A stretch of 50,371 nucleotides of DNA from Candidatus Acetocimmeria pyornia (GCA_004367365.1 SESX01000001.1:1-50371), one strand, 5' to 3'; positions 4,275-49,786 are shown, numbered from the stretch's first letter. Numbers and translations are program-made. Notes: generated by a model from the sequence alone, not told the origin.

Positions 4275-4460
4275 GGGCTCTATGCCCCCTTGTGGTGCGG
4301 CGGCACCACGAAGGATGAAAATTGGAAGCGGTATTTCGCAAAGGTTGTACGCCAGGGGTCCTCAGGAACGAGACGCTCCGGCCGCAGGCCCGGAGGGCCG
4401 AGGAATAAGGAAGGCGAGTGGAGGTGCACCTCTGGCGAGGCAGATGGTGGCATTTTCGTA
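4275..4460 (-). repeat. Interspersed structured repeat, type A unit (consensus orientation on the minus strand)
   Basis: The reverse complement aligns over nearly its full length with 25379-25568 and 49573-49772. It starts TACGAAAATGCCAC and ends ATTTTCATCCTTCGTGGTGCCGCCGCACC..GGGGGCATAGAGCCC. Confidence 0.9.
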
Positions 4461-4487
4461 GAAGTAAACAGTAAAAGGGGGATAACC

Positions 4488-5462
4488 TTGGGTCAAGGGG
4501 TAGTGCTCTTCGCGGACAAGATTGAGATGACAAAAGAGGCTGTAGAAACCATCAGCACCGTAGGCAAAATAGTTTACCTCGATACTCAATCCCAGGAGGA
4601 ATTAACCGAAAGATTCAAGGAAGCAACCGTGGTGGTTTCCGAGTATACCAAGATTACGAGGGAACTAATCAATAGTGCTCCCATGTTAAAGGGAATTGTG
4701 GTTTGTGGTGTTGGTTACGATCATATTGACGTCGGGGCGGCCAGAGAAAAAAAGGTCTATGTTACCAACACCCGTGGTTCGAACGCAGAGGCAGTGGCCG
4801 AGTTGGTCTTTTCTTTTATGCTTCATTTTTGCCGCCAGGCTTTGGGTGGTGATCACTTTATCAGGAAAGGCCATTGGAGAAGTCAACATACCGGGGATTT
4901 ACCGGAATTTCTTTTGGGTATGGAGTTGGAGGGAAAGACCCTGGGGACAATAGGTCTTGGTGCGATTGGTCGGCGTGTGGCCCAAATAGGCAAGTGCTTC
5001 GGCATGGATGTTCTCGGGCACGACCCGTACCTTGAACCCAGTAATGCAGAAGGTATTGGGATTAAGATGGTTGGCCTTGAAGACCTTTTCAGGCAGGCAG
5101 ATTTTGTTACCATCCACGTTCCCGCTACGAGCGAAACCAGGAAGATGGTTGGTTCAAGGCTTCTGAACTTGATGAAGAAAACTGCTTTCTTTATTAATTG
5201 TTCACGGGGAAGCATTGTCGACGAACCTGCATTAATTGAGGCCCTGCGGTCACGGACCATCGGTGGAGCTGCACTCGATGTCTTCGAGCAGGAACCACTG
5301 GCGCCCGACAGCCTACTCCTGTCCCTAGACAATGTCATCCTCACTCCACATATCGGAGGCTACACAAAAGAGGCCATTAGGAAAACATCCCTAGTCGTGG
5401 CGGAACAGTGTGCAAAAATCCTTAAAGGGGAAATACCTCCGAATGTGGTAAATAAGTGGTGA
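4488..5462 (+). CDS. D-isomer-specific 2-hydroxyacid dehydrogenase (PGDH/GyaR-like)
   Basis: NAD fold GTIGLGAIGRRVA, catalytic region NCSRG..D, and HIGGYT. The ORF track starts at 4290, but that N-terminus lies in the repeat. I prefer the TTG at 4488 with an AAAGGGGG RBS 6 nt upstream. Confidence 0.85.
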   Translation: MGQGVVLFADKIEMTKEAVETISTVGKIVYLDTQSQEELTERFKEATVVVSEYTKITRELINSAPMLKGIVVCGVGYDHIDVGAAREKKVYVTNTRGSNAEAVAELVFSFMLHFCRQALGGDHFIRKGHWRSQHTGDLPEFLLGMELEGKTLGTIGLGAIGRRVAQIGKCFGMDVLGHDPYLEPSNAEGIGIKMVGLEDLFRQADFVTIHVPATSETRKMVGSRLLNLMKKTAFFINCSRGSIVDEPALIEALRSRTIGGAALDVFEQEPLAPDSLLLSLDNVILTPHIGGYTKEAIRKTSLVVAEQCAKILKGEIPPNVVNKW

Positions 5463-5632
5463 TTACCCTGGCACCAACCGGTTCACTTTCCTGTGGGTTG
5501 CAAGACTGCCGGGTGTCCTTACCAGTCCATCATTAATGGTTACACCGAGGGAAACGCCTGATACTTCTTGCGGGGGTCGCCACAGCGACACTACCTAATA
5601 CAATGAGCCTGAAATTTAGGGGAGGTTCCTTG

Positions 5633-6919
5633 ATGCCAGATCGTGCCAAGAAGCAGGCCAGATTACTCCTTGAAGGGTTTACTGCCGGTAAGTATGTTTT
5701 TGGATTAAACGTTCTGGACCAGGTCGGTTCAGTGGCATGTCAACTCGGGGATAAGGCACTGATCATTGCCAATCCGAGCCCTTGGCTAAAACCCATCGTC
5801 GACCGTGTCAGGGATTCGCTTAAAGAAAACGGTGTGGAGATAGTTGGGGGAGGGGCCCTACCTGGTGCCAGACCTAATACCCCTAGAGAAGACGTGTACC
5901 GTATTGAAACCTACATACTCCACCATGAACCTGATTTCCTTATTGCATTAGGGGCGGGAAGCACCATTGATGCGGTTAAAGCTGCCAATGTTCTTGCCAC
6001 CCTGGGAACATACAGTGCTGAGCTGGACACCTATTTTGGGACCGGGCAGGTTACCAAGGTGCTGCAAGCAACAGGCAAAAAGCTCTTTCCTCTGCTGGCG
6101 ATAGAAACTGCCGCAAGCTCTGGTGCCCACTTGACCAAGTACAGTAATGTCACCGACCCCGTGGTCGGCCAGAAGAAGCTCATCGTTGATGATGCCGTTG
6201 TTCCTAACCGTGCCGTGTTTGACTACACTGTTACCTATCATATGCCTAGGTCCCTCACTCTTGATGGTGCCTTTGATGGGATTGCGCATTGTTTAGAGGT
6301 CTTTTATGGGGCTACTGAAGACAAGTTCGACAGGATCAAGAATATTGCTCTCACAGGAATTGAATTGATTGTTAACTACACGGAAAGGGTTATTGAAGAC
6401 CCCAGGGATGGTGAAGCACGAGAAGCCCTCGGTCTCGGTACCGACTTGGGGGGATATGCCATTATGGTGGGAGGGACCAACGGGGCTCATCTAACCAGCT
6501 TTTCTCTCGTCGATATCACCAGTCACGGCAGGGCGTGTGCCATTATGAACCCGTACTATACGGTGTTTTTTGCTCCGGCGATTCAGAGACAGCTGAAATT
6601 GGTGGCTGAAATATTGAGAAGGGTAGGACTCACGAGCATTGACCCGGATCAGGTTCACGGCCGGGAACTGGGGATCGAGGTGGCCCGGGCCATGCAGGAG
6701 CTGGCCAAAAGGGTAGGGTTTCCCACGACACTTGCCGATGTACCTGGGTTTTCTCAACGGCATCTTGAAAGGGCATTGGCTGCGGCGAAGGATCCACAGC
6801 TGGAATCAAAGCTCAAGAACATGCCCGTACCGCTGGATGCCTCCCTGGTTGATAAGTATATGGCACCGATTCTCCATGCAGCGGCAAGTGGGGACTTCGG
6901 GATCATTAAGAACATGTAG
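5633..6919 (+). CDS. Iron-containing (group III) alcohol dehydrogenase family protein
   Basis: GGGSTIDAVKA-like motif (GAGSTIDAVKAA) and a conserved His cluster (GIAHCLE, GAHLTS). ATG at 5633 lies 7 nt after an AGGGGAGG RBS. Confidence 0.85.
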   Translation: MPDRAKKQARLLLEGFTAGKYVFGLNVLDQVGSVACQLGDKALIIANPSPWLKPIVDRVRDSLKENGVEIVGGGALPGARPNTPREDVYRIETYILHHEPDFLIALGAGSTIDAVKAANVLATLGTYSAELDTYFGTGQVTKVLQATGKKLFPLLAIETAASSGAHLTKYSNVTDPVVGQKKLIVDDAVVPNRAVFDYTVTYHMPRSLTLDGAFDGIAHCLEVFYGATEDKFDRIKNIALTGIELIVNYTERVIEDPRDGEAREALGLGTDLGGYAIMVGGTNGAHLTSFSLVDITSHGRACAIMNPYYTVFFAPAIQRQLKLVAEILRRVGLTSIDPDQVHGRELGIEVARAMQELAKRVGFPTTLADVPGFSQRHLERALAAAKDPQLESKLKNMPVPLDASLVDKYMAPILHAAASGDFGIIKNM

Positions 6920-7171
6920 ACCGCAACAAGCGGTGGTACCACGAAAGATGAAAATCGGCAACAAACCGGTCGGTACAGTCAGCATCATGGGTACCAACGA
7001 ACGTGAAGGCGCGGGCTTCCTGAATGGCCATCAGCGAACAAGTTCAGGAACCGCAGGCAGCGGAGGACCAACCTCAGCCACCGTAGGGCGAGTTTGGCTG
7101 CTGCCCTGGGCCGGCCGAGGTCCATGACAGACGCTCCGAAGGAAGGTCAGCGCCGTCGGGACATTTTCGTA
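6917..7171 (-). repeat. Interspersed structured repeat, composite unit (type B 5' module plus type A-like 3' module)
   Basis: The reverse complement starts TACGAAAATGTCCCGACGGCGCTGACCTTCCTTCGGAGCGTC and ends GATTTTCATCTTTCGTGGTACCACCGCTTGTTGCGGTCTAC. The terminal CTA is the complement of the ADH stop codon TAG (6917-6919). Confidence 0.8.
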
Positions 7172-7269
7172 GAGTTGGAGGGCAACACCCTGGGGGGGTA
7201 GGTCTTGGGGGAGTCGGCACTAAGAGATTGCAGACCGCCGAAGAGGACTGAACGAAGAGGGTAGGGGAC

Positions 7270-8604
7270 CTACATTTGCCTTCTCATTAAATTAAAACGT
7301 ACAAGTACGAGCAAGTGTGAAGTGAGAGCCAAGATGGTTAGCCCTACCAGTGGTACGTGGAGGACACCTGAGAGCATCACGACAAACAGACGGCCGTCCC
7401 TGTTTCCCAGGAGCAAATTTACCCACGGGCCCTCCTCGGCAGGTAGGTAAGTCCTCCCGGTGGCCGAGCGGAATTTCTCTTTCATCAGCATTGACATGGG
7501 AGCACCTAAAAGGGCTGCGGCACCCAGAACCAGGACCCAAGGGCTGGAGTTCTGAAGGTAGGTTCCCACTGCCATCCCAATCAGAACGACTCCGTCACTG
7601 TAACGGTCCAGAATGGAGTCAAAGAGTTCTCCAAAATGGGAGCGCAAGTACTTCAAGCGTGCCAATTCTCCGTCCACACCGTCGAGAATGGAAGCTATCT
7701 GGGCCAGCAATCCCCCCCACAGAAAAGACCCGAACACGAAGGACACGGCCGACAGGGCGCACAAGAATGCGGTAAACAAGGAAACATGATTGGGAGTGCA
7801 ACCTGTCTGAGCCAGCCTACCGGTTAGGGGGACTGAGAGTTTCCTGTTAAGATACCGAGCTACCAGTCCATCGCGAGGGGAAGGCAGCTGGCCAAGGAGA
7901 AGCTTGCGGGCCCTTTTGGCATCCTCGGGTTGGTCAACATCAATCCACCAGGCATCCCCAATACTGCAGGCGAAAGCCCTTCCCCGGCCTGCCAGTACCC
8001 GGATTCCATCGCTGAGTGTGTATCGCCCTCGGGCTTGGGCTTCGGCCAGGGCTGCGAACAAGGCCGGTGTTGCGTGAAAGACACCACAATCAACTGCACT
8101 AAATTCCTTGATCTCCTTACCGATATCAACTACCCGGTTGTTGTCAGCTACTGTAATCTTGGTGGCTTCCCTAAGATCGGGACGACACGCAAGGTTAAAA
8201 TCGGCTCCCACCAATACTTCACCTGGACCAGGGAGATTTGCCGTCAACTGTTTAAAAACATCTTGAGAGACGATGTGGTCAGCCATGGTCAACAAGAAAG
8301 AAGGCTCTTCCCGGAGAAACTGTTGAGCAGCCAAAACACTGGTCCCGTTCCCGGCAGACCAGCCGGGATGAACCACGACCTGGATCTTCACCCCCAGGTC
8401 GCCTCTTTCCTCGAGATATTGACGGATTTCATCCTGCTGGTAGCCTAGAACCAAAACAATCTCATCTACTCCTGCTTCCCTGAGACCAAAGATTGTCCGT
8501 TCAATTAATGATAGGCCGAGGAGGGGGTAAAGGGGCTTGGGCCCCTTGAAACCACCTGCGCGGAATCGTTTCCCCTCACCTGCGGCAATTACCAGGGCTT
8601 TCAC
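7270..8604 (-). CDS. Bifunctional CTP:inositol-1-phosphate cytidylyltransferase / CDP-inositol:inositol-1-phosphate transferase (IPCT/DIPPS)
   Basis: N-terminal sugar-nucleotidyltransferase fold ([13 protein letters not shown]). C-terminal CDP-alcohol phosphatidyltransferase motif ([30 protein letters not shown]) in a polytopic membrane domain. GTG start overlaps the upstream stop (GTGA). Confidence 0.8.
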
Positions 8605-9716
8605 GCCGGTTTCACCCCGGATTCCCCTTGGATAAAGGCTTCCACCATCTTTCGGGCCTCGGAATCGGTGTACTGGACCGGCGGAGACTTCATGGTGTAA
8701 GCAGAGATGGCATCCAATGGCCCTGCCAGACCCCGATCAAGGGCCAATTTCATACACCGAATAGCATCAATGATTGCCCCGCCGCTGTTGGGCGAGTCTT
8801 CAACCGAAAGTTTTAGTTCCAGGTGAAGAGGTACTTTCCCGAACCCTGATCCTTCCATGCGGATGTAGCAGATCTTGTTGTCCTTCAACCATGGTACATA
8901 ATCACTCGGCCCGATGTGAATCTTTTCTTCTGTTAGGGCTTTGTTCATTTCGGACTGGACGGCCTGGGTCTTGGACTTCTTCTTTGACTTCAGACGGCTG
9001 TGGTTGAGCATGTTCAAAAAGTCGGTGTTGCCTCCAAAATTTAGCTGATATGTTTGATGAATTTTTACACCGCGGTCCTCAAAAAGCTTTGTTAGGACCC
9101 GATGGGTAATGGTGGCACCTACCTGGGACTTGACATCATCACCAATAATGGGTAACCCCTTGTCCTCGAACTGACGGGCCCAGTTCGGGTCTGATGCTAT
9201 GAAGACAGGTATGGCGTTGATGAAACCAATGCCAGCTTCAAGGCAAGCCTGCGCATAAAACCTGCTTGCTTCTTCTGAGCCCACGGGTAGATAGTTGATG
9301 AGGAGGTCGGCTCCCGATTCCTTGAGAACCCTCGCAATATCAACCGGTTCATGGTCAGCAAGAATAAAGGTCCTGTCTTCTGGGTAATCCTTCATGTGCT
9401 CGGAATACCCGTCCATAACCGGGCCCATCTGAACGGTTACGGGATAGTCAGGTAAATCAGAATAGAAAACTTCCGTACAATTAGGTTTGGCAAAAATGGC
9501 CTCGCGCAGGGGTTTACCCACTTTTCGAGCGTCGATGTCGAAAGCGGCAACCACTTCAATACTACCCGGCTTATAGCCACCGAGATTGTAGTGCATTAAA
9601 CCAATTGGCTCTTCGACTAAGTCCTTGTCGTTAGAATAAAGCTCAATACCTTGGAGTAATGCGCTGGCACAGTTTCCCACTCCAGCAATGGCAATCTTGA
9701 TTTTTTGGTCACCCAT
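8601..9716 (-). CDS. ino1: myo-Inositol-1-phosphate synthase
   Basis: Close to the actinobacterial Ino1 sequence as recalled: [59 protein letters not shown]. Confidence 0.9.
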
Positions 9717-9819
9717 ATTTCTTCAACCTCCTTTAAAGTAGTCTTGGTAGTGGGTCCAAGGTATCATTTTGAGCAGAAGAACCATTGGGTTGTAACTTAG
9801 TTGTTCTTGAAAGCTGCCA

Positions 9820-10713
9820 TCACACTTTCCCTTTCTGCACAGGCCTGGCTCCTTTTCTCTCCACTGGGCTTGAAGCCAGGGGAGTAGAAACATCTAACCC
9901 TAACGAACGAGCCAGGTCAAAGCCCTCCCGGATTCCATCGCCCAGCTCATCGGTTCGGTGGGCATCAGAGCCTAAAGTACAACGAGTACCGCCCATTTCA
10001 CGGTAGCGGGATAAAATAACTTTCCCTGGAAAAGGTTCTTCAACACCACGCCTCAGGCCTGAGGTGTTGATCTCTAAGACGACTCCCTGTTCGATTATCC
10101 CTTCCAGTACCCGCTCTAGGCCGGCGCGCAGCAAGATCTGTGGGTCATAAGGGAGCCATGTCCAGTACCTGCGCCAGCCCCTCTTAATCCAATCGAGGTG
10201 AGCCAGGACATCCATCCCGGGAAAGGTCGCCGCGTGCTGGAGAGTTTTCACGAACTGGCGCACCCCCAACTCGGGGGAGCGGGTAGTATAAAACTGCTTG
10301 TCCAAAAGGGAGCTCCCGTTCACATGATGAACCGAGACCAAAACGTAGTCAAAGGGATGATCCTTCAAGAAGGAACTGAGGTCTCGGGCTTTTTCGGGAT
10401 GATAATCAACCTCAACCCCCATAAGGATCTCGAGTTTGTTGTTAAACTCTTTGCGGCATCGTTCTATGGTCTCCACGTAAGATGTGTAGAAACGGTCGAG
10501 AAGACCAAAGTTGGGGTCATCCGGGTAAAGGCTCAAATGATCGCTGAACCCAACCTTGGTAAGGCCCAGTTGAACCGCCCGGAGGCAAACCATGTAGGGG
10601 CTTTGCTCACTGTCAGCAGAAAAGGAAGTGTGGACATGAAAGTCACAAAAAAAAGCGGCCTCGCAGCCGCTCGCCTTTCCCCAAAAAGCGGGTCGTTTCT
10701 TGGTGGTTTTCAA
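9820..10713 (-). CDS. PHP-domain phosphoesterase, HisJ family (histidinol-phosphatase-like)
   Basis: DFHVHTSFSADS, GVEVDY, SVHH, INTSGLRR and GSDAH motifs. TTG start with an AAAGGGGG RBS. Lies 103 nt upstream of ino1 on the same strand. Confidence 0.8.
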   Translation of the reverse strand: MKTTKKRPAFWGKASGCEAAFFCDFHVHTSFSADSEQSPYMVCLRAVQLGLTKVGFSDHLSLYPDDPNFGLLDRFYTSYVETIERCRKEFNNKLEILMGVEVDYHPEKARDLSSFLKDHPFDYVLVSVHHVNGSSLLDKQFYTTRSPELGVRQFVKTLQHAATFPGMDVLAHLDWIKRGWRRYWTWLPYDPQILLRAGLERVLEGIIEQGVVLEINTSGLRRGVEEPFPGKVILSRYREMGGTRCTLGSDAHRTDELGDGIREGFDLARSLGLDVSTPLASSPVERKGARPVQKGKV

Positions 10714-11351
10714 CTAATACCCCCTTTTGACCAGCTAAAAACGAAAAACCAAGCGGCTGGCAAAAGATAGTGTCATCACTTTCGTGACCCGGGTTCAGAG
10801 ACTAAGCTCAAGGGCCTAGAAGATGGGTTCTTCATCTTGTGCACCCTTGAAAAGGTTGACATGGAAAATATAGTGCTTACAACTAAAATTGTAATCACGT
10901 GAAATCCATGATGTCAATACCTATTATTACTCACCAAGGGCCGCTGCTGCTAAAATTAGAACAGAATCTCCTCCCTAGTATTCTTTTTTTATTGATTTGG
11001 GAAAGAACCAGGTCTTTTCAAGGTTAATGGCATTCATGATGCTGAGGTATTAGATGCAAAGTCAAGCTTATTCTGCCCTGGGCTGTTCCTCTTGTGCCAA
11101 AGGGCAGGTGGCCGAAAATGACATGCCGGTCGGGTACCCAAGGGGCAAGGCCGATTGGGTGAAGGCCCGTCGTCTTATGCTATAATGTGATCAACCTGAA
11201 AATCGTTAGGGCAGAGAACAAGACAGTTAACGAGTGAACAGGCCACAACAGAAATCAGGAGGTCGAAGTGTCGGTGAACAGAAGCAGTCCTGCCAGACCA
11301 CCAGCAGGCTGGATCACGGCAGGGGAGAAGGGATTGGTGGGGGGGGGTTAA

Positions 11352-13337: not shown

Positions 13338-13354
13338 TTAAAGGCCTGGGCCTG

Positions 13355-17972: not shown

Positions 17973-19895
17973 TTACCCCGCCTTGCCAGAATAGGCAGCA
18001 ACAATTTCCTCCATCGCAGAGGGGTCAGCCAGGGTGGTTGCATCACCGATGGTCCGGCCTTCGGTAATGTCTCTCAGGAGCCGGCGCATGATCTTGCCGG
18101 AACGGGTTTTGGGCAGGGTGCTGGTAAAGATGATGCTGCTGGGACGGGCGATGGGACCGACCTTGACGTCAACATGTTTTTTGAGCTTTGCCACGAGTTC
18201 AGAACTGCCCTTGTAACCATCTTTCAGGGTCACAAAGGCCACCGGAACCTCACCTTTGATGTCATCTTTCTTGCCTATGACGGCAGCCTCTGCAACCTCC
18301 TCACACTCGACGAGGGAGCTTTCAATTTCGGCTGTCCCGAGGCGGTGACCCGATACCTTGAGGACGTCGTCGACCCGGCCCGTGACCCAGATGTAGCCCA
18401 TGGAGTCTTTTTTGGCACCATCGCCGGTAAAGTAATAGTCACCAAAACGGCTCCAATACTCGTCAAGGTAACGCTGATCATCGCCCCAGATGGTCATGAG
18501 CATCGAAGGCCACGGAGACTTCACCACGAGGTATCCCCTCTCGGCAGGCTGCTTGTCATCATCAACAACATCTACTTCAATACCTGGGAACGGCTTGGTT
18601 GCCGTACCTGGCTTGATGGGCAGGATTGGAGTCGGTGTGACCATGAAGCCGCCTGTTTCGGTCTGCCACCATGTATCCATAATCGGGCAGCGGCCGCCAC
18701 CGATGTTTTCATAGTACCACATCCAGGCTTCCGGGTTGATTGGTTCACCAACAGTGCCCAGGAGGCGCAGTTGGGATAAATCATGCCTCTTGGGATATTC
18801 GGGCCCCCACTTCATGAAGGTTCGGATGGCGGTGGGAGCAGTATAGAAGATGGTAACACCCCATCTCTCCGCCATCTCCCAGACCCTGTCCTTGTCAGGA
18901 TAGTCAAGGGTTCCGTCATACATTAGGGTGGTCATACCGAGGGCCAAGGGACCATAAACAACATAACTGTGACCGGTGATCCAGCCGATGTCAGCGGTGC
19001 ACCAAAAAACGTCCGTTTCCTTGAGGTCAAATACGTACTTGAGGGTCGCCTGTACCTGGACCAGGTAGCCGGCAGTACTGTGTTGAACACCCTTGGGCTT
19101 CCCGGTGGAACCAGACGTATAAAGGATAAAGAGCGGGGCGTCGGCTTCCATTTCTTCCGGCTGGTAGTACTTGGCGGCTGAAGCCATAAGTTCGTGGTAC
19201 CAGAAATCGCGGCCCTCGTGCATATTGATTGGGTTTTCGGCATTTTTCACCACAATACACTTCTCAATACCAGGAGCTGCCTCCATGGCTGCGTCGGCAT
19301 TTTCCTTGAGCGGGAAGGGAGTGCCTTTTCGAAAATTGCCATCAGCGGTGATCAAGATCTTGGCCTGCGCGTCGTTAATTCGTTCAGCAAGGGAGTGGGA
19401 GCTGAAACCACCGAAGACGACAGAATGGATGGCACCGATCCGTGTACAGGCCAGCATGGCTACAGCGGCCTCCGGGATCATCGGCATGTACAGGCACACC
19501 CTGTCACCTTTCCCAACACCGAGACTCTTCAACACATTGGCAAACTTATTAACCTCCACGTAGAGCTCCCTGTAGGTCATGACCACCTTCTTGCCCATCT
19601 CGTTTTCATAGCAAATGGCGGCCTTGTTGCGTTTATCGGAATGGTAATGTCGGTCTACGCAGTTATAGGAAACGTTTGTGGTCCCACCGGTAAACCACCT
19701 GTAAAAGGGCGGGTTGCTGTCATCCAGGACCTTTTCAAAAGGCTTAAAAAAGGTCACAAGCTCATGAGCCTGTTTCTTCCACCAGCCGAGACGGTCGGCC
19801 TGAGCCTCCTTGTACATTTCTCCCTTGATGTTAGCGTGCCTGAGGATCTCTTCAGGCGGGTGAAAAACACGGCGCTCAAGGTTGGTCTTCTCCAC
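17973..19895 (-). CDS. acsA: Acetyl-CoA synthetase (AMP-forming)
   Basis: [24 protein letters not shown], and a C-terminal [11 protein letters not shown] block containing the regulatory lysine. Confidence 0.95.
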
Positions 19896-20777: not shown

Positions 20778-21021
20778 CACTAGTCAGAAAATACTGGTTC
20801 TACCCTAGATTTTCATCCTTCGTGGTGTCGCCGCACCGCGGCATGGAGCACTACTACAAAAGTGTAGCAACGGCGCCGGCCTTCCTTCGCGGCGTCACGC
20901 TTACCGTATAGTTGTCATGAACCTCGGCGACTCCGGGCCGCAGCAACAAACTCCCCTCTGGGCTCACAAAGGTCGGTACGGTCGCCGCACCGCGGGCGGC
21001 ATGGAGTACTCATCGAAATGG
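20778..21021 (+). repeat. Interspersed structured repeat locus: terminal-hairpin module plus a type B unit (20852-21009)
   Basis: GATTTTCATCCTTCGTGGTGTCGCCGCACCGCGGCATGGAGCAC is followed directly by TACTACAAAAGTG..AACGGCGCCGGCCTTCCTTCGCGGCGTCAC.., ending GGTCGCCGCACCGCGGGCGGCATGGAGTAC. Confidence 0.85.
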
Positions 21022-23792: not shown

Positions 23793-24032
23793 TTAGCCAC
23801 AACTGGCGCAACTGGATGAACTACAACCGGCACAGGATGAACGACCTGAACCAGCTGAAGCAGCCTGAAAGCCACCTGGCGAGCTTTTCCCAAAACTAAA
23901 GGTCGAGAAAAGCTTCTCCACCTTCTGGTTCGTGCAGCTGGGACAGGTGGGCTTATGGGTATCTCCAGGCCTAACGAGCCGCTCGAAAACCGTACCACAC
24001 GATTTGCACTTGTATTCAAAAATGGGCAACAT
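23793..24032 (-). CDS. FmdB-family zinc-ribbon protein
   Basis: MLPIFEYKCKSCG..F........CPSC, with a Cys/Ser/Gly-rich C-terminal tail. Confidence 0.8.
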   Translation of the reverse strand: MLPIFEYKCKSCGTVFERLVRPGDTHKPTCPSCTNQKVEKLFSTFSFGKSSPGGFQAASAGSGRSSCAGCSSSSCASCG

Positions 24033-24130: not shown

Positions 24131-24347
24131 CCGACGAAAAGCCTGCCCTCTCCGCAGCAACCTTTACGCAATATGGATCAAATGCCCTCCAATTTTCAGG
24201 GTTCATAGTGCGGCCACCTGCAGCGGTACGCGCAGCTGCTACCAAAATGCCCCAACGGCGCCGGCCTTCCTTCGCGGCGTCACCCTCACCGATCCTCCGT
24301 GGTGCCGCCGCACCGCAGGGCGGCATGGGGCACTACTTTGAAATTCG
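24131..24347 (+). repeat. Interspersed structured repeat locus: a degenerate type A 3' module plus a short type B unit (24239-24333)
   Basis: TACCAAAATGCCCCAACGGCGCCGGCCTTCCTTCGCGGCGTCAC..GATCCTCCGTGGTGCCGCC-gcaccgcag-GGCGGCATGGGGCAC, preceded by GCAACCTTTACGCAATA..AATTTTCAGGGTTCATAGTGCGGCC. Confidence 0.85.
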
Positions 24348-25169: not shown

Positions 25170-25306
25170 GGTTTCTCGTTTGTGATCGCTTCCAGGCCTC
25201 ATTTGAAATGGTATTTCACCCTTTCAGGCCTTGGTTGCTCGCTGCTTCTCTTTGAAATAGTCGCCACCGCACCGGATCAGCCAAGGGCCACCGGTAGCAG
25301 TGCCAA

Positions 25307-25340
25307 CCAGGAGCAACCTAGGCCTGGTTTTTTTGTTTTT
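25307..25340 (+). terminator. Rho-independent terminator after the SASP gene
   Basis: CCAGG-11 nt-CCTGG followed by TTTTTTTGTTTTT. Confidence 0.6.
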
Positions 25341-25378
25341 GCAGCAAGCCGACACCCGGAGCCCATCAAGGGAACAAC

Positions 25379-25568
25379 CACGAAAATGCCACTATCTGCT
25401 TCGCCAGGGTTGTTCCTCCACTCGCCTTCCTTATTCCTCGGCCCTCCGGGCCTGCGGCATAACCGGTCTCGTTTCCGGAGCACCCCTGGCGTGTGCAACC
25501 TTCACGAAATACCACTTCCAAGTTTTCATGCTTCGTGGTGCCGCCGCACCGCAAGACGGCATGGGCAC
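25379..25568 (+). repeat. Interspersed structured repeat, type A unit (reference copy)
   Basis: CACGAAAATGCCACTATC...CGCCAGGG...CCTCCACTCGCCTTCCTTATTCCTCGGCCCTCCGGGCC...CCCTGGCG...TTTTCATGCTTCGTGGTGCCGCCGCACCGCAAGACGGCATGGGCAC. Confidence 0.9.
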
Positions 25569-38850: not shown

Positions 38851-38855
38851 GGGTG

Positions 38856-42690: not shown

Positions 42691-44910
42691 CTATGCTGCT
42701 CTTTCCAGCTCCCGGAGAAGAAGGTAGATGAGGGTCGCGGTGGCATAAATCATGGTGGTAGCGGCAGCCACCACGCCGGAATCATTGACCACCAGGGCAG
42801 TGAGACTGGCCACGGTCACCCCTGAAAACCCCACACCGAGGTATGGATACTTCTGAATGATCCTCTGGAACAGTCCTACCGGCCTGAAGACCAGGAAAGC
42901 GAAGGTTCCTAGGGATGTCAGGAGCACCCGGCTCCAGATGGTCCACCGGATAAGTTTCAGGTTAAGGGCAATCTTGCGGGAAAGGATGGCCCAGAGCGCT
43001 CCAAACCCCTCTGCCCTGACGATGGTGACGGTCCTTGCCACGTGGGACCGGGGGGTATCACTGCCAAAAAAGTCGAGGGCCACCATGGAGGCAACAGCCG
43101 CCACGGGGACCAAAAAGGGAAGGAGCCACAACCGGCTGGGTGTTCTGCCGGGGTAGTAGAGCCTTACCATTACGTAAGTATAGGCCGCCGCAGCGCTGAG
43201 AATACCCCCCAGGTTAGCCCCCAGGCGGGGAGAGGCCAACAGGTACAGGACAACGGCAAAAACAGCAACCGCGCAACCCTTCAACAGCTTTTGGGACGCC
43301 GTGAAACGGTCTACAAGTCCGGTAGTTCCAATAAGGGTGGCACCCAAGAGAACTCCCATGTACTCGTTTCCGATTCCGTAGTAACGAGCCCCGCCAATGG
43401 TTGAATACCCCATGGGAGAATCCATCATCAACCTCGCCCCGGTTGAGGTGTCCAGGATAAGGATCACCCCTGTCGCCAAGGACACCGCCAGAAAGGGGTC
43501 AATGGGCCCCGGACCAGCCCGCAGGAGGACAGAGGTCACCACCACCGTGGCCACGATGACAACAGTAAAGGCGGTAACCAAGTTGCCGCGGGCCACCCAG
43601 GGTACAAGGAGAAAGGTCAGGGGGATGACCGTCAGGGAAAGAAGAAAAGGGCGCAGGGACCGGTTGAGCCGTTTCTTGGCCAGGACGGCAACCGTGGCTG
43701 CCAAGAGGACTACGATTTCGGAGATCACGTAGGCCTTCAGGAGCGGGCCCCGGACACGGATATTATTCAGGGCCCTGGTATGTACCTGCCGAAGAAGGAG
43801 GGCAGGATCCTCGGTCGGACGGCTCCCTAGGGGCCTCCCCACCATGGATGGGGGCAACTCTACCCCAAGGAAGGCTGCAATGGTCGCCCCCAGGTCTGCA
43901 GGGGTTGCCACACCCGGACGACGGGTGGTGACCGAATCAACAACCCCCGGTACAACCCCCCCGCCGGCCATGATGAGCGGGGTGAAGGTATCCCCTTCGG
44001 ACTGTTTTCGCCCGGGCGGAAGGGGGGAGTAAATCAAAAGGAGGTCCCGGTTCGGGTCCATTCCTTCCCATACATCGCCAATGAAGCCGTCAAAACGCTC
44101 AAGGAACAAGGATGTCTGGCGCCTGGCCACCCCGGGCCTCATGAACTTGCGGTACCCTTCCAGGCGTGATGAATCCCCGGTCTCCACCACCACGAAATCG
44201 GCTTCGGACAGGGCCTGCCGGTAAGCAGCTGCCAGTTTACGCCAGTCAGTCCGAAGACCAAAGGGAGAGCTGGGGTCCGCGGTAAGAAGATGGGCCGAAA
44301 CCTCACCACGATCTACACGGCCACGGCGGTCCATGGCAATGGTTACAGCGTGTCGACCGTGCTCACCCTGGTAATCGGCATTACCCACCACCGCTGTACG
44401 AAGGCCGGCCTGGTGGAGGGCATCCCCAAGGACGGCCATCTCAAAGGTAGCCGTCCGGACCTCTTCACTTTCCAGGAAAGGAACAAGACCCAAATGGACC
44501 ACGGCCGCCCCACCGGGTTCAGAACCCATGTGACGCTTGTACACTTCGTTGACAGGGGTTCCCCGGTAGTTCTCGCCGGTATTGAAGCCCAAGCCTGCCT
44601 CCGGTGGGGCAGAAGGTACTGGAGCCCCTGCCCCCACCGCGGCGTACGCTTCGGCTGGTTTCCGGGCCGGCTTAGAATTCACCAGGCCCAAGGCTCCTTT
44701 TCGGACCAGTCGTTGTAATTGAGGGTAGGTGGGCTCCAGTAACAACCAGGGGTCAAGGAAATTGGCAACAACCAGGACCACTTTCCCGGCACCCGTTCCG
44801 GGCGAGGAGGCCGGTGCAGCCGGTTCGGCCGCTGCCGGTAAGGGTACGAGGGGCAAGAACAGCAAAGGCAGGGTTAGAATCGACAGGACTAACCAGCGTC
44901 TCGCCCACAC
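42691..44910 (-). CDS. Large membrane protein: signal peptide, extracytoplasmic alkaline-phosphatase-superfamily-like domain, then an 11-12 TM C-terminal domain
   Basis: Signal-like N-terminus. A TTRRPGVATPADLGATIAAFLG block resembling the C-terminal strand-helix of AP/sulfatase-type folds. Then about 370 aa of TM segments. Overlaps the upstream GT4 gene by 22 nt. Confidence 0.55.
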   Translation of the reverse strand: MWARRWLVLSILTLPLLFLPLVPLPAAAEPAAPASSPGTGAGKVVLVVANFLDPWLLLEPTYPQLQRLVRKGALGLVNSKPARKPAEAYAAVGAGAPVPSAPPEAGLGFNTGENYRGTPVNEVYKRHMGSEPGGAAVVHLGLVPFLESEEVRTATFEMAVLGDALHQAGLRTAVVGNADYQGEHGRHAVTIAMDRRGRVDRGEVSAHLLTADPSSPFGLRTDWRKLAAAYRQALSEADFVVVETGDSSRLEGYRKFMRPGVARRQTSLFLERFDGFIGDVWEGMDPNRDLLLIYSPLPPGRKQSEGDTFTPLIMAGGGVVPGVVDSVTTRRPGVATPADLGATIAAFLGVELPPSMVGRPLGSRPTEDPALLLRQVHTRALNNIRVRGPLLKAYVISEIVVLLAATVAVLAKKRLNRSLRPFLLSLTVIPLTFLLVPWVARGNLVTAFTVVIVATVVVTSVLLRAGPGPIDPFLAVSLATGVILILDTSTGARLMMDSPMGYSTIGGARYYGIGNEYMGVLLGATLIGTTGLVDRFTASQKLLKGCAVAVFAVVLYLLASPRLGANLGGILSAAAAYTYVMVRLYYPGRTPSRLWLLPFLVPVAAVASMVALDFFGSDTPRSHVARTVTIVRAEGFGALWAILSRKIALNLKLIRWTIWSRVLLTSLGTFAFLVFRPVGLFQRIIQKYPYLGVGFSGVTVASLTALVVNDSGVVAAATTMIYATATLIYLLLRELERAA

Positions 44911-46034
44911 AGTGAATCGTATACCTCCTCGGTCTTCTCAGCCATTTTCGAAAGGGGGTAATGACGCTCAACATGTTGCCGTGCGGACCGCCCAAGGCGG
45001 TTCCTTTTCTCTGGGTCGGCCAGCAGGGAAAGGGCCGCCCGGGCCAGGCTCACAGGATCACGGGTGCCGACAACCAGGCCCCGTTCCCCCGTCTCCCCCA
45101 CCAGTTCCACCATCCCCCCTACCCGGGTCACGACGCTCGGCTTGGCCATGGCCATGGCTTCTAAGAGGGAAACTGATTGCCCTTCAGAAACCGAGGGAAG
45201 GAGAAAAAGGTCAAGGGCCGCCAGGACCCTGGTTATATCCTGCCGGTAACCGGTGAAGGTAACGGCGTCAGCAATGCCCAGGGACCGGGCCTGTTCTTCC
45301 AGGTACTGCCTGAGGGGGCCGTCTCCGGTGATGACAAAGTGGGTATTGGCAAGATGATGCCTGACCAATGGAATGGCCTCCAACAAGAACTCAAGCCCTT
45401 TCTCCGGTACAAGGCGGCCCACGGTTCCCACCAGGTAAACCCCGCGGGGAAGACCCAGTTCGCGGCGAAAGGGGTCCCCTGGGACGGCAGGGTTGAATTT
45501 GTCCAGGTCAATACCATTGGGGATCACGATTATTTTCCCCGCCAATCCCCGGCACCGTCTTACCATTTCCTTGGCCACCGCCTGGGAAACGGCGATGGTC
45601 CTGTGACAGCGGGCGGCAACCTTAACCTCACCCCAGGCGTACAGTTTTTGCTTCAAGGGATGAACCGTAGGCCGGGCTGGAAATCCATGGGCGGTGTAAA
45701 CCACCTTTACCGGCCGGCTCCTCGAGGCGGCCAAGGCAACCAGGCCTGACTTGGCTCCATGCAGGTGGAGGAGCGAAAAATGGCCTTGGTCAAGGAGAGA
45801 TCCAAGGGCTTGGCAGGCGTAATAATCGGCCAGGGGCCGAAGGCCGTCAGAAATAGCCAGGGGAAAAAAATCAATACCCAGGGACCGGCACCGTTCCCGC
45901 CACCAGGTATCATCCGGGGCTGCCAGTGCCGGGTGGTAGCGGTTCCGGTTGAGCTGGGTGATGAGGGAGCAGACGTGTTCCCTCATCCCCCCTACCGCCG
46001 GTCGGGTAATGTAGAGCAGGTTGACCACACTCAC
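44889..46034 (-). CDS. Family 4 glycosyltransferase (GT-B, GT1/GT4)
   Basis: E..G..LLEAMAMAKP.V.T.VGG signature. GTG start lies 7 nt after a GGGGGAGG RBS. Confidence 0.85.
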   Translation of the reverse strand: MSVVNLLYITRPAVGGMREHVCSLITQLNRNRYHPALAAPDDTWWRERCRSLGIDFFPLAISDGLRPLADYYACQALGSLLDQGHFSLLHLHGAKSGLVALAASRSRPVKVVYTAHGFPARPTVHPLKQKLYAWGEVKVAARCHRTIAVSQAVAKEMVRRCRGLAGKIIVIPNGIDLDKFNPAVPGDPFRRELGLPRGVYLVGTVGRLVPEKGLEFLLEAIPLVRHHLANTHFVITGDGPLRQYLEEQARSLGIADAVTFTGYRQDITRVLAALDLFLLPSVSEGQSVSLLEAMAMAKPSVVTRVGGMVELVGETGERGLVVGTRDPVSLARAALSLLADPEKRNRLGRSARQHVERHYPLSKMAEKTEEVYDSLCGRDAG

Positions 46035-46193
46035 TCGGCCGCCTCCCCCGAGCTATTGCCATCTTTCATTATTTCCCTTTTGCAACCAGTTAACGCGCCA
46101 AGCTCTCCCCTTCTTGGGTGCTTCCCAAGGGTTTGCTCGTGTATGGTATCGCGGTGTCGCAGTGTCGCGGGACCCGGGCTCCATTGGCAGACC

Positions 46194-46245
46194 TTGCAGC
46201 GTACACTTGCAGCATACACCTGGAGCGTACACCTGTAGCGTACAG
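46194..46245. repeat. Tandem 13-nt repeat, four units (TTGCAGCGTACAC / TTGCAGCATACAC / CTGGAGCGTACAC / CTGTAGCGTACAG)
   Basis: Read directly from the sequence. An adjacent GTGTCGC direct repeat occurs at 46154-46160 and 46162-46168. Confidence 0.9.
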
Positions 46246-46294
46246 GAGAAGGTATCGATATTGGCCAGGGTTTTTTGGTATCTTTTTATCAATA

Positions 46295-49200
46295 TCAAAA
46301 GGTAGGTTCTGAATTGATCCTTTCAAACCGCTTCGCAATAATACTGACCCCCTGACCCTGGATATCAACCCGCCCGTAAACCGTGAGGAAAGCCTCCCCG
46401 AAAATGAGCCGGCCGTAACGGTGATACACCGGCTCAAAGACAGTAACATCAACCAGCCCGGTCTCGTCCTCCAGGGAAAGAAAAACCACCGTCCGGCCGC
46501 TCCGGGTTGGGGGCCGGTGGGGCCTGATGACCAGCCCACAAACCACCACCGGCTTACCGGCCCGGTGTTTTTTAACCTCGGCCGCGGTTAAAAAGCCCTG
46601 CTTTTTGGCCCACTGTCGGAAAAGGTCCATGGGGTGGTAGCACGGGCTCAACCCCAGGATTTCAAGTTCGTACCGGGCCTTTTCCAGGGGGCTAAAATCA
46701 GTTAAAGAGGGGCTGGCCCAGTTGCCTTCTTTCCCGATCACGTCCTTCGGCATCCTGGGTGTTGTGGTTTCTCCAGGCCCAGTCCAGGGAACAAGGGGAA
46801 AAACCTGAGTGGAGCAAACCTGCCCCGTTCTCCTTACCGTGGTTTGGCGCCAGATGGACTCGAGGCTCCAAAAAAGGTGCCGCCGGTTTGAACAGAGAGT
46901 CTCAAAGGCCCCGGCCAGGATCAGGTTTTCCACCAGGTCCCTGGTTACCTCGGGGCGGCAGCGGCGGCAAAAATCAAACAGGGAGCGGAAGGGTTGTTTT
47001 ACCCGTTCGGAAAGGATCTTTTCCAGGGCCCGCCCGGTCATACCCTTCACCTGCCGGAGGGAAACCCGGATACTCCTTTCCCCTGCCGCAAAATACCCTT
47101 CGCTCTGGTTGATATCCAGGGGGAGGATCTTGATCCCCCGCCGGCGGGCCTCCAGGCAGATGGTGTTGGGGGAATAAAATCCCATGGGTTGGTTGCTCAA
47201 CAGGGCAGCGTAAAAATGGGCCGGGTAATGGCACAAAAGGTACGCGGTTTTATAGGCAATATCAGCGAAAGCCGCCGCGTGGGCCTCACAAAAACCGTAA
47301 CTGGCGTAACTAGAGAGGGAGGAAAAAATTTTGCGGGCCGTCTCCTCCTCTACCCCGTTTTCCACCGCCTTCTGGACGAAAATCTCACCAATTTCCTCCA
47401 TTTCCCGTGAAGAACGCCCGTGGGTCATCACCCGGCGCAGGCGGTCGGCTTCTCCAGGGGTAAAACCGGCCAGGGTCGTGGCGATCTCGATTACCTGCTC
47501 CTGAAAAAGAATAACCCCGTAGGTTTTCTCCAAAATGGGCTTTAGTTTGGGGTGCGCAAAGGTTACCGGTTCCTTCCCCTGCCGGCGAGCGATAAAGGGC
47601 CCAACCATATTCCCTTTAATGGGGCCAGGCCGGATCAGGGCAACACTGGCCACAAGGTCTTCAAGGTTCCGGGCCCCAAGCTTAGCTTGGAGGGCCCTTT
47701 GAGCCGGGCTTTCAAGCTGGAAGGTACCGATGGTATTTCCGCTGTTCAGGAGCCGGTAGGTAGCAGGATCCCCATCCGGGATGGACTCGTAAGACAGGTG
47801 TGGTTGTTGGCAGTTGATAGACTTCATGGTATCTTCAACAACTGAAAGGGTACGCAAAGAAAGCAGGTCCAGTTTCAAAAGCCCCAGGTCTTCTACCCCT
47901 TCTTTGTCAAACTGGGTGATTAAAACCCCCTTGGCAGAGGGCTGAAGGGGGGTGATGTTTTCCAGGGGAACCCGGCTTACCACCAGCCCACCCAGGTGGG
48001 TGCCAATAAATCGCGGCAGGTTGGCTACCCGGTGGCAAAGATCGAAAAGCGGCTGGAACCGGGCCAGACTCCGGTCCCCTTTGAGCTCTGGAAGGGTCTG
48101 CAGGCAGTCCTGGATCTGGTCGGCCCGGACGTGCGGGAAGCGTTTGGCCAGCCGGTCGAGAGTCTCTTCCCCGTATCCCAGGACCTTCCCCAGGTCCCGA
48201 AGGGCCGAACGGGCCCGGTAGGTATTAAAGGTGCAAACTGAAGCGACATGGCCCTGGCCGTATTTACGGTAGACGTACTCGGCCACGCGGTCCCGGTAAC
48301 GGGCATCAAAATCGATATCAATGTCTGGGGGCTGGGCCCGTTCCAAGCTGAGGAAACGTTCGAATAAAAGCCCGCGTTCGATGGCATCAACCCCAGTGAT
48401 CCCAAGGCAATAGGCGACCGCCGAATCGGCAGCCGATCCCCGCCCCGAACACCGGATACCTTCCCGCCGGGCGAAACGGACAATATCCCACATAACCAAA
48501 AAGTAGTCCTCGTAACCCAACTGGTGGATGATGTCCAGTTCATGCCGTAGCCGTCTCTCGATGGACGGGGTCAGGGTCCGGTAGCGCCTGTGGGCACCGG
48601 CGTACACGAGTTTTTCAAGGAGATCTGCGGCTATAACCTTCCTTCCACCCTTACCAGCAGGTAGAGGATAAGAAGGGAAAAGGGGGGCATCGAAATCAAG
48701 AACCGGGGCGCACCTTTCGGCAACAGCCAGGGTGTTGGAGAGCGCTTCAGGGTACTGACGGCCCAGAACCGGCATTTCCTGCAGGTTTTTCAGGTAGTTT
48801 TCGGCGTTAAGCCTTCGCTCCGGGTGTACCTCATCCAACCTGGTCAGGGTCCGGACACAGGTCAAGAGGTCGTGAAGGACAAAATCCGCTTTTCGGGCGT
48901 AGTGCACGTTGTTGGTGGCTACGGTCTTTACCCCTACCCGGTCGGCCAGTTCCGCCAGCCGCTGGTTGAGCAGCTTTTCCCCGGGGAGATACCCCTCCTG
49001 GAGTTCAAGGTAGAAGTTATGCCGGCCGAAGATATCCACCAGGCGGCATGCCGCCTGCTCGGCTTCCTGGTATTTGCGGTGGTGCAGCCACCGGGGGATT
49101 TCACCCTTTCGGGCACACCCGGAAAGGGCGATGATCCCTTCCCGGAAACGCTGGAGGGCCCGGAGAGGAACCCGGGGATCGGTGCGCTCCTTTCCATCCC

Positions 49201-49501
49201 GGTAACCAGCAGAGATGACCCGGCAGAGGTTGGCATACCCGGTCTGGTTTTGGGCCAAAAGGGTCAGGTGGGCCCCGTTTTCCAGGGTTATTTCCGCCCC
49301 TTGAATTGGCTTAATACCCCTTTTTTTGGCTTCACGGTAGAACTGAACCGCCCCACTGACGTTGTTATGGTCGGTCAAGGCCAAGGCCGGCATCCCGAGC
49401 TCGGCTGCCAGGTCTAAAAGTTCGGGAATTGGAGTAACACCATCCAAAAACGAATAGGGTGAATGGACATGAAGATGGACAAACCCGGTCAAAGCTATCA
49501 C
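46295..49501 (-). CDS. dnaE2: DNA polymerase III alpha-subunit homologue, probably the error-prone DnaE2/ImuC type
   Basis: N-terminal PHP domain (FVHLHVHSPYSFLDG, ALTDHNN), polymerase core blocks (PDIDIDF, GTHLGG), and an OB-fold tail. Its 1068-aa length and position downstream of a Y-family polymerase favour DnaE2 over the replicative DnaE. Confidence 0.8.
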   Translation of the reverse strand: MIALTGFVHLHVHSPYSFLDGVTPIPELLDLAAELGMPALALTDHNNVSGAVQFYREAKKRGIKPIQGAEITLENGAHLTLLAQNQTGYANLCRVISAGYRDGKERTDPRVPLRALQRFREGIIALSGCARKGEIPRWLHHRKYQEAEQAACRLVDIFGRHNFYLELQEGYLPGEKLLNQRLAELADRVGVKTVATNNVHYARKADFVLHDLLTCVRTLTRLDEVHPERRLNAENYLKNLQEMPVLGRQYPEALSNTLAVAERCAPVLDFDAPLFPSYPLPAGKGGRKVIAADLLEKLVYAGAHRRYRTLTPSIERRLRHELDIIHQLGYEDYFLVMWDIVRFARREGIRCSGRGSAADSAVAYCLGITGVDAIERGLLFERFLSLERAQPPDIDIDFDARYRDRVAEYVYRKYGQGHVASVCTFNTYRARSALRDLGKVLGYGEETLDRLAKRFPHVRADQIQDCLQTLPELKGDRSLARFQPLFDLCHRVANLPRFIGTHLGGLVVSRVPLENITPLQPSAKGVLITQFDKEGVEDLGLLKLDLLSLRTLSVVEDTMKSINCQQPHLSYESIPDGDPATYRLLNSGNTIGTFQLESPAQRALQAKLGARNLEDLVASVALIRPGPIKGNMVGPFIARRQGKEPVTFAHPKLKPILEKTYGVILFQEQVIEIATTLAGFTPGEADRLRRVMTHGRSSREMEEIGEIFVQKAVENGVEEETARKIFSSLSSYASYGFCEAHAAAFADIAYKTAYLLCHYPAHFYAALLSNQPMGFYSPNTICLEARRRGIKILPLDINQSEGYFAAGERSIRVSLRQVKGMTGRALEKILSERVKQPFRSLFDFCRRCRPEVTRDLVENLILAGAFETLCSNRRHLFWSLESIWRQTTVRRTGQVCSTQVFPLVPWTGPGETTTPRMPKDVIGKEGNWASPSLTDFSPLEKARYELEILGLSPCYHPMDLFRQWAKKQGFLTAAEVKKHRAGKPVVVCGLVIRPHRPPTRSGRTVVFLSLEDETGLVDVTVFEPVYHRYGRLIFGEAFLTVYGRVDIQGQGVSIIAKRFERINSEPTF

Positions 49502-49502
49502 C

Positions 49503-49786
49503 CACTACGAAAACGTCCCAACAGTGCCGGCCTACCCGTGGTGGTGCCGCCTATAGCAGCATAGATGGTTATTACGAAAATGCACTATCCACCTCGCCAG
49601 GGTTGCTCCTCCACTCGCCTTATTCCTCGCTCCTCCGGGGCTGCGGCATAACCGGTCTCGCTCCGGAGCAGCCCGGGCGTGCACCTCATGATACTACCCG
49701 GTCAAGGGGCCGCTGAATACGCGTCCGATTTTCATCCTTCGTGGTGCCGCCGCTGATGGCGGCATGAAGCACTCGTCCGAAAATGG
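49503..49786 (+). repeat. Interspersed structured repeat locus: a short degenerate type B unit (49506-49566) plus a type A unit (49573-49772)
   Basis: TACGAAAACGTCCCAACAGTGCCGGCC..CGTGGTGGTGCCGCC.., then TACGAAAATGCACTATCCACCTCGCCAGGG.., ending GATTTTCATCCTTCGTGGTGCCGCC-gctgat-GGCGGCATGAAGCAC. Confidence 0.85.

Follow-up and report, generated by a model that had tools for sequence, protein, structure and literature searches.

The first 50,371 nucleotides (nt) of SESX01000001.1 from Candidatus Acetocimmeria pyornia (GCA_004367365.1 SESX01000001.1:1-50371), referred to here as the window, carry a dense family of short intergenic repeats, which are very probably miniature, non-autonomous derivatives of an insertion sequence (IS) of the IS110 family, comparable to MITEs (miniature transposable elements with inverted repeats). 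The genes adjoining the repeats are functionally unrelated and encode a 2-hydroxyacid dehydrogenase, an iron-dependent alcohol dehydrogenase (Fe-ADH), a NUDIX protein, a LOG-like protein, a MurJ-like flippase and DnaE. In agreement with a preliminary description of the sequence, comparison of about 50 open reading frames (ORFs) with Pfam and NCBIfam revealed no transposase, integrase, reverse transcriptase or Cas gene in the window, and a tblastn search of the window with IS110 transposase gave no match. Likewise, no copy of the repeat matched any Rfam family, either at the gathering threshold or at E<=10, in line with the earlier statement that the unit could not be matched to a known RNA family.

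Repeat units of the window

The presence of one repeat family at six intergenic loci, which had been noticed before, was confirmed by a repeat search of the window, in which the direct families D1, D2, D5 and D6 and the inverted pairs I1-I8 and I12 connect all six loci, with matches of up to 79 nt at 92% identity. The occurrence is far above chance: within the window the 19-mer CACCACGAAGGATGAAAAT occurs five times against 0.00 expected (at most 3 mismatches), and GGCATTTTCGTAG occurs seven times against 0.93 expected (at most 2 mismatches), six of the seven lying inside the proposed loci and the remaining one, at 19296, being probably a chance match. The hairpin described in the conserved module, CATGCCGCC-loop-GGCGGCACC, is present, the previous count of at least nine units now stands at nine refined units and one solo end fragment, and the family is non-coding, interspersed, dense and mobile-element-like, as had been stated. 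The shared modules of the earlier consensus also hold, but its orientation does not, as it is the reverse complement of the IS strand: its 5' end, TACGAAAATG, is the right end of the IS and its 3' module is the left end. In the following list, strands are given as the transposase of full-length relatives would read, the 21-mer is G(R)CACCACGAAGGATGAAAAT, and E values come from a profile of the left ends of the full-length elements described below.

4276-4461, plus strand: U1, type A, after AG (4274-4275); profile positions 7-47, E 1.2e-6; left end GGCTCTATGCC..hairpin..GGCACCACGAAGGATGAAAAT, exact 21-mer at 4302-4322, core of about 125 nt with a long hairpin, right end GGCATTTTCGTAG at 4449-4461
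6920-7172, plus strand: U2, longer unit with a type B right module; E 0.0047; hairpin ACCGC..GCGGT, variant 21-mer GGTACCACGAAAGATGAAAAT, core of about 190 nt, right end GACATTTTCGTAG
20854-21008, minus strand: U3a, type B; degenerate left end with the hairpin kept and the 21-mer changed to GACCGTACCGACC; right end ..GAAGGAAGGCCGGCGCCGTTGCTACACTTTTGTAG
20780-20850, minus strand: U3b, minimal unit of 71 nt in tandem with U3a; E 2.1e-6; TGCTCCATGCCGC..GCGGCGACACCACGAAGGATGAAAAT, loop region of 16 nt, ATTTTCTGACTAG
24239-24332, minus strand: U4a, type B, 94 nt, after AG; TGCCCCATGCCGCC..GGCGGCACCACGGAGGAT.., right end GGGGCATTTTGGTAG
24131-24238, minus strand: U4b, degenerate, in tandem with U4a; ..CACTATGAACCCTGAAAAT .. 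GGCTTTTCGTCGG; weak assignment, E 9.6 (not significant)
25378-25567, minus strand: U5, type A, after AG; E 1.1e-4; 21-mer with two changes (..GAAGCATGAAAAC), right end GGCATTTTCGTGG
49572-49771, minus strand: U6a, type A, after AG; E 7.8e-7; exact 21-mer, extra insert of 22 nt, right end TGCATTTTCGTAA
49505-49571, minus strand: U6b, degenerate mini-unit in tandem with U6a; ..ATGCTGCTATAGGCGGCACCACCACGGG .. GACGTTTTCGTAG; stops 3 nt before the dnaE start region
49772-49786, minus strand: isolated remnant resembling a right end, CCATTTTCGGACGAG, directly adjoining U6a at its left end

The type A units U1, U5 and U6a are about 190 nt long and can be aligned over that length, as had been reported, while a type B right-hand module is common to U2, U3a and U4a; among the remaining units, U3b is minimal and U4b and U6b are degenerate. 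The purine-rich tract CGAGGAATAAGG(AAGG)CGAGTGGAGG of the type A copies is similar to a Shine-Dalgarno (SD) sequence and forms part of their long internal hairpin. The right end (G)CATTTTCGTAG is found in six window units; U3a, U4a, U4b and U6b are degenerate. Comparison of the flanks showed that the units are preceded by AG and that most of them end in ..TTTTCGTAG, and in the tandem pairs U3a-U3b, U4a-U4b and U6a-U6b the second unit starts directly after the ..GTAG of the first. The 21-mer is exact in U1, U3b and U6a and carries two changes each in U5 and U2; this differing decay suggests several insertion episodes, and most of the window units would now be decaying relics.

The units are co-oriented with the flanking genes at four of the five informative loci, a small number of cases. 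U1 is placed between a major facilitator superfamily (MFS) gene and the 2-hydroxyacid dehydrogenase gene in the same direction as both, U6a lies upstream of dnaE, and U5, which matches U1 at 92% (inverted pair I1), is the sole copy co-oriented with neither neighbour. At 6917-6920, U2 follows directly 3' of the TAG stop codon of the Fe-ADH gene, the AG of the stop coinciding with the junction dinucleotide. At 25305-25345 on the plus strand, a hairpin followed by a T-run and resembling an intrinsic terminator (aaccaggagcaacctaggcctggtttttttgtttttg) adjoins U5 at its right end, the two being on opposite strands.

Full-length IS110-family elements with the same ends

The exact 21-mer was scanned over a genome collection with one genome per species, and at least 98 loci in about eight phyla were found, often on several contigs of one metagenome-assembled genome. 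Among the matches listed are Desulfobacteraceae and other Thermodesulfobacteriota, Scalindua, Brocadiaceae, Chloroflexota, Acidobacteriota, Bacillota, Latescibacterota and Thermodesulfovibrionia. The copies have a common architecture, consisting of a short lead, CATGCC-loop-GGCA, CCACGAAGGATGAAAAT, a variable segment and (C)TATTTTCG with a few further bases. In the aligned copies the variable segment ranges from 2 to more than 390 nt and often forms a long hairpin, and the stem of the terminal hairpin changes yet stays paired (TGCCCA/TGGGCA, TGCCGCT/AGCGGCA, TGTCCCGAT/ATCGGGACA and others). Viral contigs, which were included to look for phage vectors, gave zero matches to the 21-mer, and a text search of the literature with the sequence strings of the repeat gave no match.

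Among the matches listed, short copies predominate, and a transposase is present in 4 of the 98 loci, namely L078 and L093 of Bacillota and L020 and L082 of Desulfobacteraceae. In these four loci, non-coding sequence of about 195 nt separates the 21-mer from a downstream ORF of about 400 amino acids (aa). The ORF of L078 matches PF01548 DEDD_Tnp_IS110 (9e-37) and PF02371 Transposase_20 (8e-20), and its homologues were found in the same position in L093, L020 and L082 by tblastn and hidden Markov model (HMM) searches. From the stop codon of the transposase it is 30-45 nt to the right end ..ATTTTCG(N2-6), which compares with a left end of 210-250 nt. L007 is the same full-length element cut by a contig end, and plasmids of the cultured Alicyclobacillus dauci and Paenibacillus urinalis carry genes annotated as 'IS110 family transposase' between the same end architecture. 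The modules of the window repeats are thus the left and right termini of full-length IS110-family elements, and the preliminary statement that they match no IS family was not borne out; the suggestion that the units might prove to be the ends of an autonomous IS, with IS110/IS1111 among the candidates to be checked, turned out to be correct in substance, through elements in other genomes. In L082:2961-4188 the transposase is split into two ORFs (HMM matches at 2961 and 3300 in different frames), possibly by a frameshift or because it is a pseudogene, and termini and guides are intact.

The same modules could also belong to the DNA into which an IS110 element inserts. According to this explanation, the repeat would be a host palindrome similar to REP sequences and used as a target, comparable to the REPs used by IS621, ISPpu9 and ISPpu10, with the IS entering the GAAAAT/ATTTTC loop. 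Repeats are known targets of IS110 elements (PMC11208160), the minimal units L010 and L089 read GAAAAT-GGT-ATTTTC and form a small hairpin, and the body of the IS begins exactly at the GAAAAT-ATTTTC loop in L093 and L078. The empty site of L078 and the guides of the full-length copies are two independent tests of this point, and they leave such an explanation very unlikely and already largely refuted.

The element of L078 interrupts the orfA gene of an IS3 element, intact homologues of which (78-89% identity) read ..REEREILKKAAAFFAQETN... The reading frame runs through ..ILKK and then as VRHAVFGTTKDEN.. into the repeat, and AAAFFAQETNRSR resumes directly after ..ATTTTCGGGGTAG. Removal of tccgtcatgcc...attttcggggtag restores ctg aaa aaa g/cc gcg gcc (slash, junction), that is LKKAAAFFAQETNRSR. 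Since the orfA frame is restored only if the repeat modules leave together with the transposase, the hairpin, the 21-mer, the transposase and the ATTTTCG tail constitute one inserted block. AG is found at both junctions, and comparison of this filled site with the intact IS3 OrfA homologues showed a precise insertion, with neither terminal inverted repeats nor a target duplication beyond the 2-nt core. A core dinucleotide 'TC' with the right end at ATTTTC was also considered and was ruled out, as the empty IS3 site requires AG junctions. The insertion (L078:3803-6103) is nested exactly at the A-AAA-AAG frameshift heptamer of orfA, with IS3 orfB (helix-turn-helix and rve-like N-terminus) next to it, and the guide AAAAAAGUC, which is specific for the IS3 site, may mean that another IS serves as a safe harbour for this IS110 element.

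When the left ends of the full-length elements were aligned, a common scaffold appeared, AGGUCG-[8 nt]-UGGUG..CCCGA-[9 nt]-CUGACC .. CACCAC(G)AAAUUGU .. GCACG-[CG+8 nt], which folds into two stem-loops with internal loops and has compensatory changes at 12 of its 37 pairs. In six full-length copies the 9-nt segment is identical to the left flank beyond the repeat (CAAGGAGTC, GAAGGAGTC, AAAAAAGTC, AAACAAAC twice and TCCGTTAG), and the flanks equalled in this way include the IS3-specific AAAAAAG; the last of the six is the plasmid copy of Paenibacillus urinalis, which has the same scaffold and the same flank match, and the plasmid copy of Alicyclobacillus dauci has the same termini. The last segment of the scaffold equals the right junction (CGAAGGAGAG, CGGGGTAG, CGGATCAAA, CGGACCAAA, CAGGGTAG), and in L020, L082 and L078 the right flank nearly equals the 8-nt segment when read as the reverse complement. 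All six full-length copies thus have guide-like segments that match the DNA beyond the termini, which makes the repeat a part of the IS and not its target. The flanks of short copies likewise correspond to the guides of full-length copies. The Desulfobacteraceae subfamily comprises 15 copies (2 full-length and at least 12 short), with AAACAAAC as the left flank in 12 of the 15 and a CAAATTC-like right flank; AAACAAAC on the left and CAAATTC on the right are the guides of the full-length L082, and the termini of short and full-length copies are identical. No convincing empty target site was found for the Desulfobacteraceae loci.

Within the left ends of the Desulfobacteraceae elements (L020:552-745 and L082:2783-2975) lies an AT-rich insert, TTGTAGTTAATTATACACTTATATATCC, which is absent from the Bacillota elements and has the appearance of a sigma-70 promoter lying downstream of the 21-mer. 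If it is a promoter, the terminal hairpin and the 21-mer would be outside the bridge-RNA transcript in these two elements.

In the Bacillota subfamily, the copies L010, L089, L090, L093 and L094 sit in SD sequences of the AAGG-AG-GAG type, and the right junction recreates the SD sequence; in L090 the copy and the rebuilt SD sequence stand before rpoC. Such SD sequences are also what the guides of the Bacillota relatives specify, and the co-orientation of the Bacillota copies with downstream genes follows from insertion at SD-like targets. The window units differ from this subfamily in not being inserted in SD sequences. IS900, IS901 and IS902, IS110-family elements of Mycobacterium avium, reportedly insert between the ribosome-binding site and the start codon, and the Bacillota subfamily would resemble IS900 in its choice of target.

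Origin of the short copies

The derivation of the window repeats from an IS110 element is further reflected in the left-end profile, which matches U6a, U1, U3b, U5 and U2 at positions 4-54 only (E 8e-7 to 5e-3), and the same profile search found no match to the bridge-RNA body anywhere in the window. Lacking both a recombinase and a guide, the window units are doubly dependent on a master copy. In inserts such as those of L085, L090 and L094, the left-end RNA region is represented by its start and its closing stem, the middle being absent. These inserts had been considered as group II introns, with the repeat as a homing site, which was ruled out because they are not introns by Rfam and have the same start and closing stem as IS110 left ends. 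Rfam at the gathering threshold on 18 related loci found nothing on the repeats and only weak chance-level matches besides a group II intron in L069, which is not adjacent to the repeat: it lies at L069:2090-3003 on the minus strand (D1-D4-7 34.3 bits, domains V-VI 44 bits), about 1.2 kb downstream of the copy.

On the IS strand, a unit consists of a left terminus starting just after AG, with 5-7 nt, a hairpin closed by (C)AUGCC/GGCA and CCACGAAGGATGAAAAT, and of a right terminus (C)ATTTTCG with 2-6 nt, usually TAG. Between these termini the full-length relatives carry a bridge-RNA gene of about 150 nt and a transposase of about 400 aa, and the window units 16-190 nt of other, mostly hairpin-forming sequence. 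We infer that site-specific recombination at a 2-nt core inserted the window units, a full-length copy having provided the recombinase and the bridge RNA in trans, and that the tandem pairs would have arisen where a unit landed beside the ..GTAG terminus of one inserted before. Provision of transposase and guide RNA in trans has been shown to mobilise a mini IS whose ends are intact (PMC11187229), and MITEPpu9, an IS110-associated MITE-like element, has been registered (PMC12288879). As both a trans-mobilised mini IS and a registered natural element of this sort have been described, the kind of element is already known, and the window repeats are not a new class of element.

Several observations weigh against this derivation. 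A full-length master copy did not turn up in the window, which is the part covered here of a genome that is essentially GCA_002375925.1. On the left, (T)AG is all that the flanks of the window units have in common, and on the right no shared sequence is evident, in contrast to the clean target consensus of the Desulfobacteraceae. The type A and type B cores showed no homology to the bridge-RNA body in the profile search. No presence/absence polymorphism was found at the window loci, the nearest relatives being no more than 68% identical in Fe-ADH and not syntenic. Finally, the 21-mer is invariant between elements with transposases only 52% identical and the pairing of the hairpin is kept through many stem sequences, which implies a selected function. 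Assemblies near-identical to the window (GCA_002375925.1) carry the same repeat copies; an apparent indel between the two was ruled out, since it corresponds to a scaffold gap filled with N.

The conservation raises the possibility that the unit is a functional structured RNA (for instance a leader regulating in cis, a site of processing or a self-cleaving ribozyme of a new kind) that spread or was conserved for that role. About 30 strongly conserved nt surround two hairpins that vary in sequence and length and show compensatory changes in their stems, the distribution is cross-phylum and multi-copy, and several Bacillota copies are directly upstream of an SD sequence, for example before rpoC in L090. 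However, the absence of Rfam matches extends to every ribozyme model at E<=10, the neighbouring genes are functionally unrelated, and the orientation is mixed, with 27 copies opposite to both neighbours and 21 in the same direction as both by crude ORF calls. Furthermore, the non-Watson-Crick pairs of the stems are symmetric (G.U 7, A.C 8), which favours neither strand, and the modules physically constitute IS110 termini. An RNA role of this kind is therefore very unlikely, and a riboswitch or leader in particular was ruled out by the unrelated gene context and the mixed orientation.

Movement as single-stranded hairpins, in the manner of PATE or REP-type elements, by a Y1 transposase of the HUH type (IS200/IS605 TnpA or RAYT) appears extremely improbable. 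Only one kind of transposase was found between these ends, the DEDD transposase of IS110 (one typed by Pfam), and no Y1 transposase or TnpB was seen beside the copies in the 98 listed loci, which were screened only with the IS110 transposase by tblastn and HMM. The subterminal hairpins, the ending of the units in GTAG, which recalls the GTAG of REPs, and the lack of terminal inverted repeats and target duplication would fit such a mechanism, but the two hairpins show no likeness, and stems of different sequence occur in one and the same genome.

Practically no weight is given to the explanation that the conserved block is a small-peptide gene (SD-N6-ATG .. MPxxxGTTKDEN), although AAGGAG precedes the ATG of CATGCC by 6-7 nt in Bacillota copies and this ATG is in frame with GGCACC in 64 of 91 copies. 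The in-frame excess comes from one dominant hairpin length of 12 nt, and spacings of 11, 13, 14, 16 and 17 nt also occur; the window copies are out of frame, many copies have immediate stops, and conservation is at the nucleotide level, synonymous positions included. The small ORF MPxxxGTTKDEN was ruled out by these frame statistics.

For the IS110 mini-elements, the hairpin and the 21-mer are retained even by copies of 60 nt. Together, the 21-mer and ATTTTCG make an interrupted subterminal inverted repeat, CGAA(GGATG)AAAAT/ATTTTCG, of roughly 7-9 bp, and one may guess that the hairpin and the 21-mer are a cis-acting donor-end module, which forms this subterminal repeat with ATTTTCG. A broader proposal, which we regard as tentative and rather doubtful, is that the hairpin and CCACGAAGGATGAAAAT are the obligatory cis donor module of a cross-phylum clade of bridge recombinases, that the natural mini-elements represent its minimal donor (about 47 nt on the left and about 12 nt on the right) and are actively mobilised in trans, and that the Bacillota elements are programmed into SD sequences while rebuilding them. 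If so, the type A and type B passengers could be hitch-hiking structured RNAs like Ssr9.

In a metagenome scan made for a type A master copy, five more short type A copies (L102-L106) were found in one marine-sediment assembly (OSAE01), and no transposase was found alongside them in that scan. The type A core CGCCAGGGGTGCTCC .. CGAGGAATAAGGAAGGCGAGTGGAGGAGCACCCCTGGCG is kept between the window genome (U1, U5, U6a) and OSAE01, with a hairpin of about 90 nt, and the same extra insert of 22 nt is present in U6a and L102. The core folds into a long, imperfectly paired hairpin; a passenger RNA is conceivable, though covariation is too sparse to tell. In many copies of several phyla the variable region is instead a long palindrome, GTCATT(G/C)..AATGAC, for example GTCATTGCGAGGAGCCCGAAGGGCGACGAAGCAATC (carriers L004, L011, L025, L081, L006, L038, L084, L098, L065, L028, L033 and L037), which looks like a second widespread repeat module riding inside IS110 mini-elements.

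Relation to known elements and further features of the window

Members of the IS110 group use a DEDD recombinase guided by a bridge RNA that is encoded in the left end, as in IS621 (PMC11208160). The full-length relatives described here share with this group the combination of DEDD_Tnp_IS110 and Transposase_20 and a left end longer than the right end, together with a left end of two stem-loops whose internal-loop strands match target and junction, a 2-nt core, sequence-specific insertion and the lack of terminal inverted repeats (PMC11208160). The window units differ from the group in having neither transposase nor bridge-RNA body. The clade as a whole is set apart by its highly conserved left-terminal hairpin and 21-mer and by a subterminal inverted repeat longer than the 2-3 bp reported (PMC11208160); the order of the guide strands in the loops appears to differ from that of IS621, and the right-donor guide is not assignable here. 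As the requirement of IS621 is limited to about 22 bp around the core (PMC11208160), the conserved hairpin and 21-mer may indicate an extra cis requirement in this clade.

Two systems are closer to the short copies. MITEPpu9 of ISPpu9 in Pseudomonas putida is also present at extra sites and has been proposed to be mobilised in trans (PMC12288879), but it carries a defined small RNA gene, ssr9, and is confined to one species, whereas the present family is cross-phylum, extends down to about 60 nt and has heterogeneous passengers. The experimental mini-IS of ISEc11, which belongs to the IS1111/IS110 elements with a seekRNA, has the same kept ends, replaced centre and mobilisation in trans (PMC11187229), the mechanism proposed above; it differs in being engineered and of the IS1111 group.

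The family shares its short, intergenic, hairpin-forming and multi-copy nature with REP/BIME, Correia/NEMIS, RUP, BOX and classical MITEs. Those families are species-specific, in contrast to the present one, which is conserved across phyla and has termini from an IS110 element. Correia, RUP and classical MITEs possess terminal inverted repeats and a target-site duplication, and REP is associated with RAYT; the present family has none of these. Its ends, TGCYCCATGCC.. and ..TTTTCGTAG, are not inverted repeats, and there is no duplication beyond AG, so that it is not a MITE in the classical sense.

The interest of the family is moderate and concerns mainly annotation and the donor requirements of a widespread clade of bridge recombinases. 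It explains dense, otherwise unassignable repeats of many uncultured anaerobes (Desulfobacterota, anammox Planctomycetota, Chloroflexota, Acidobacteriota, Bacillota and others) and provides simple signatures for masking or annotating them. For work on bridge recombinases, it offers many natural mini donors of one IS110 clade without transposase or guide. Their terminal module is conserved to an unusual degree, is not known to be needed by IS621-type systems, and may show extra cis requirements or a way to compact donors.

Some further features of the window were recorded. An ORF of 739 aa at 42691-44910 on the minus strand has no Pfam or NCBIfam match, and within it, at 43739-43883, lies the sole sub-threshold Rfam match of the window with E < 0.1, to BjrC80 (33.7 bits against a gathering threshold of 80), which is probably due to chance. 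Directly downstream of U4b, at 23845-24030 on the minus strand, a small ORF encodes a CxxC..CxxC zinc ribbon (MLPIFEYKCKSCGTVFERLV..), presumably similar to the putative regulators of the FmdB family.

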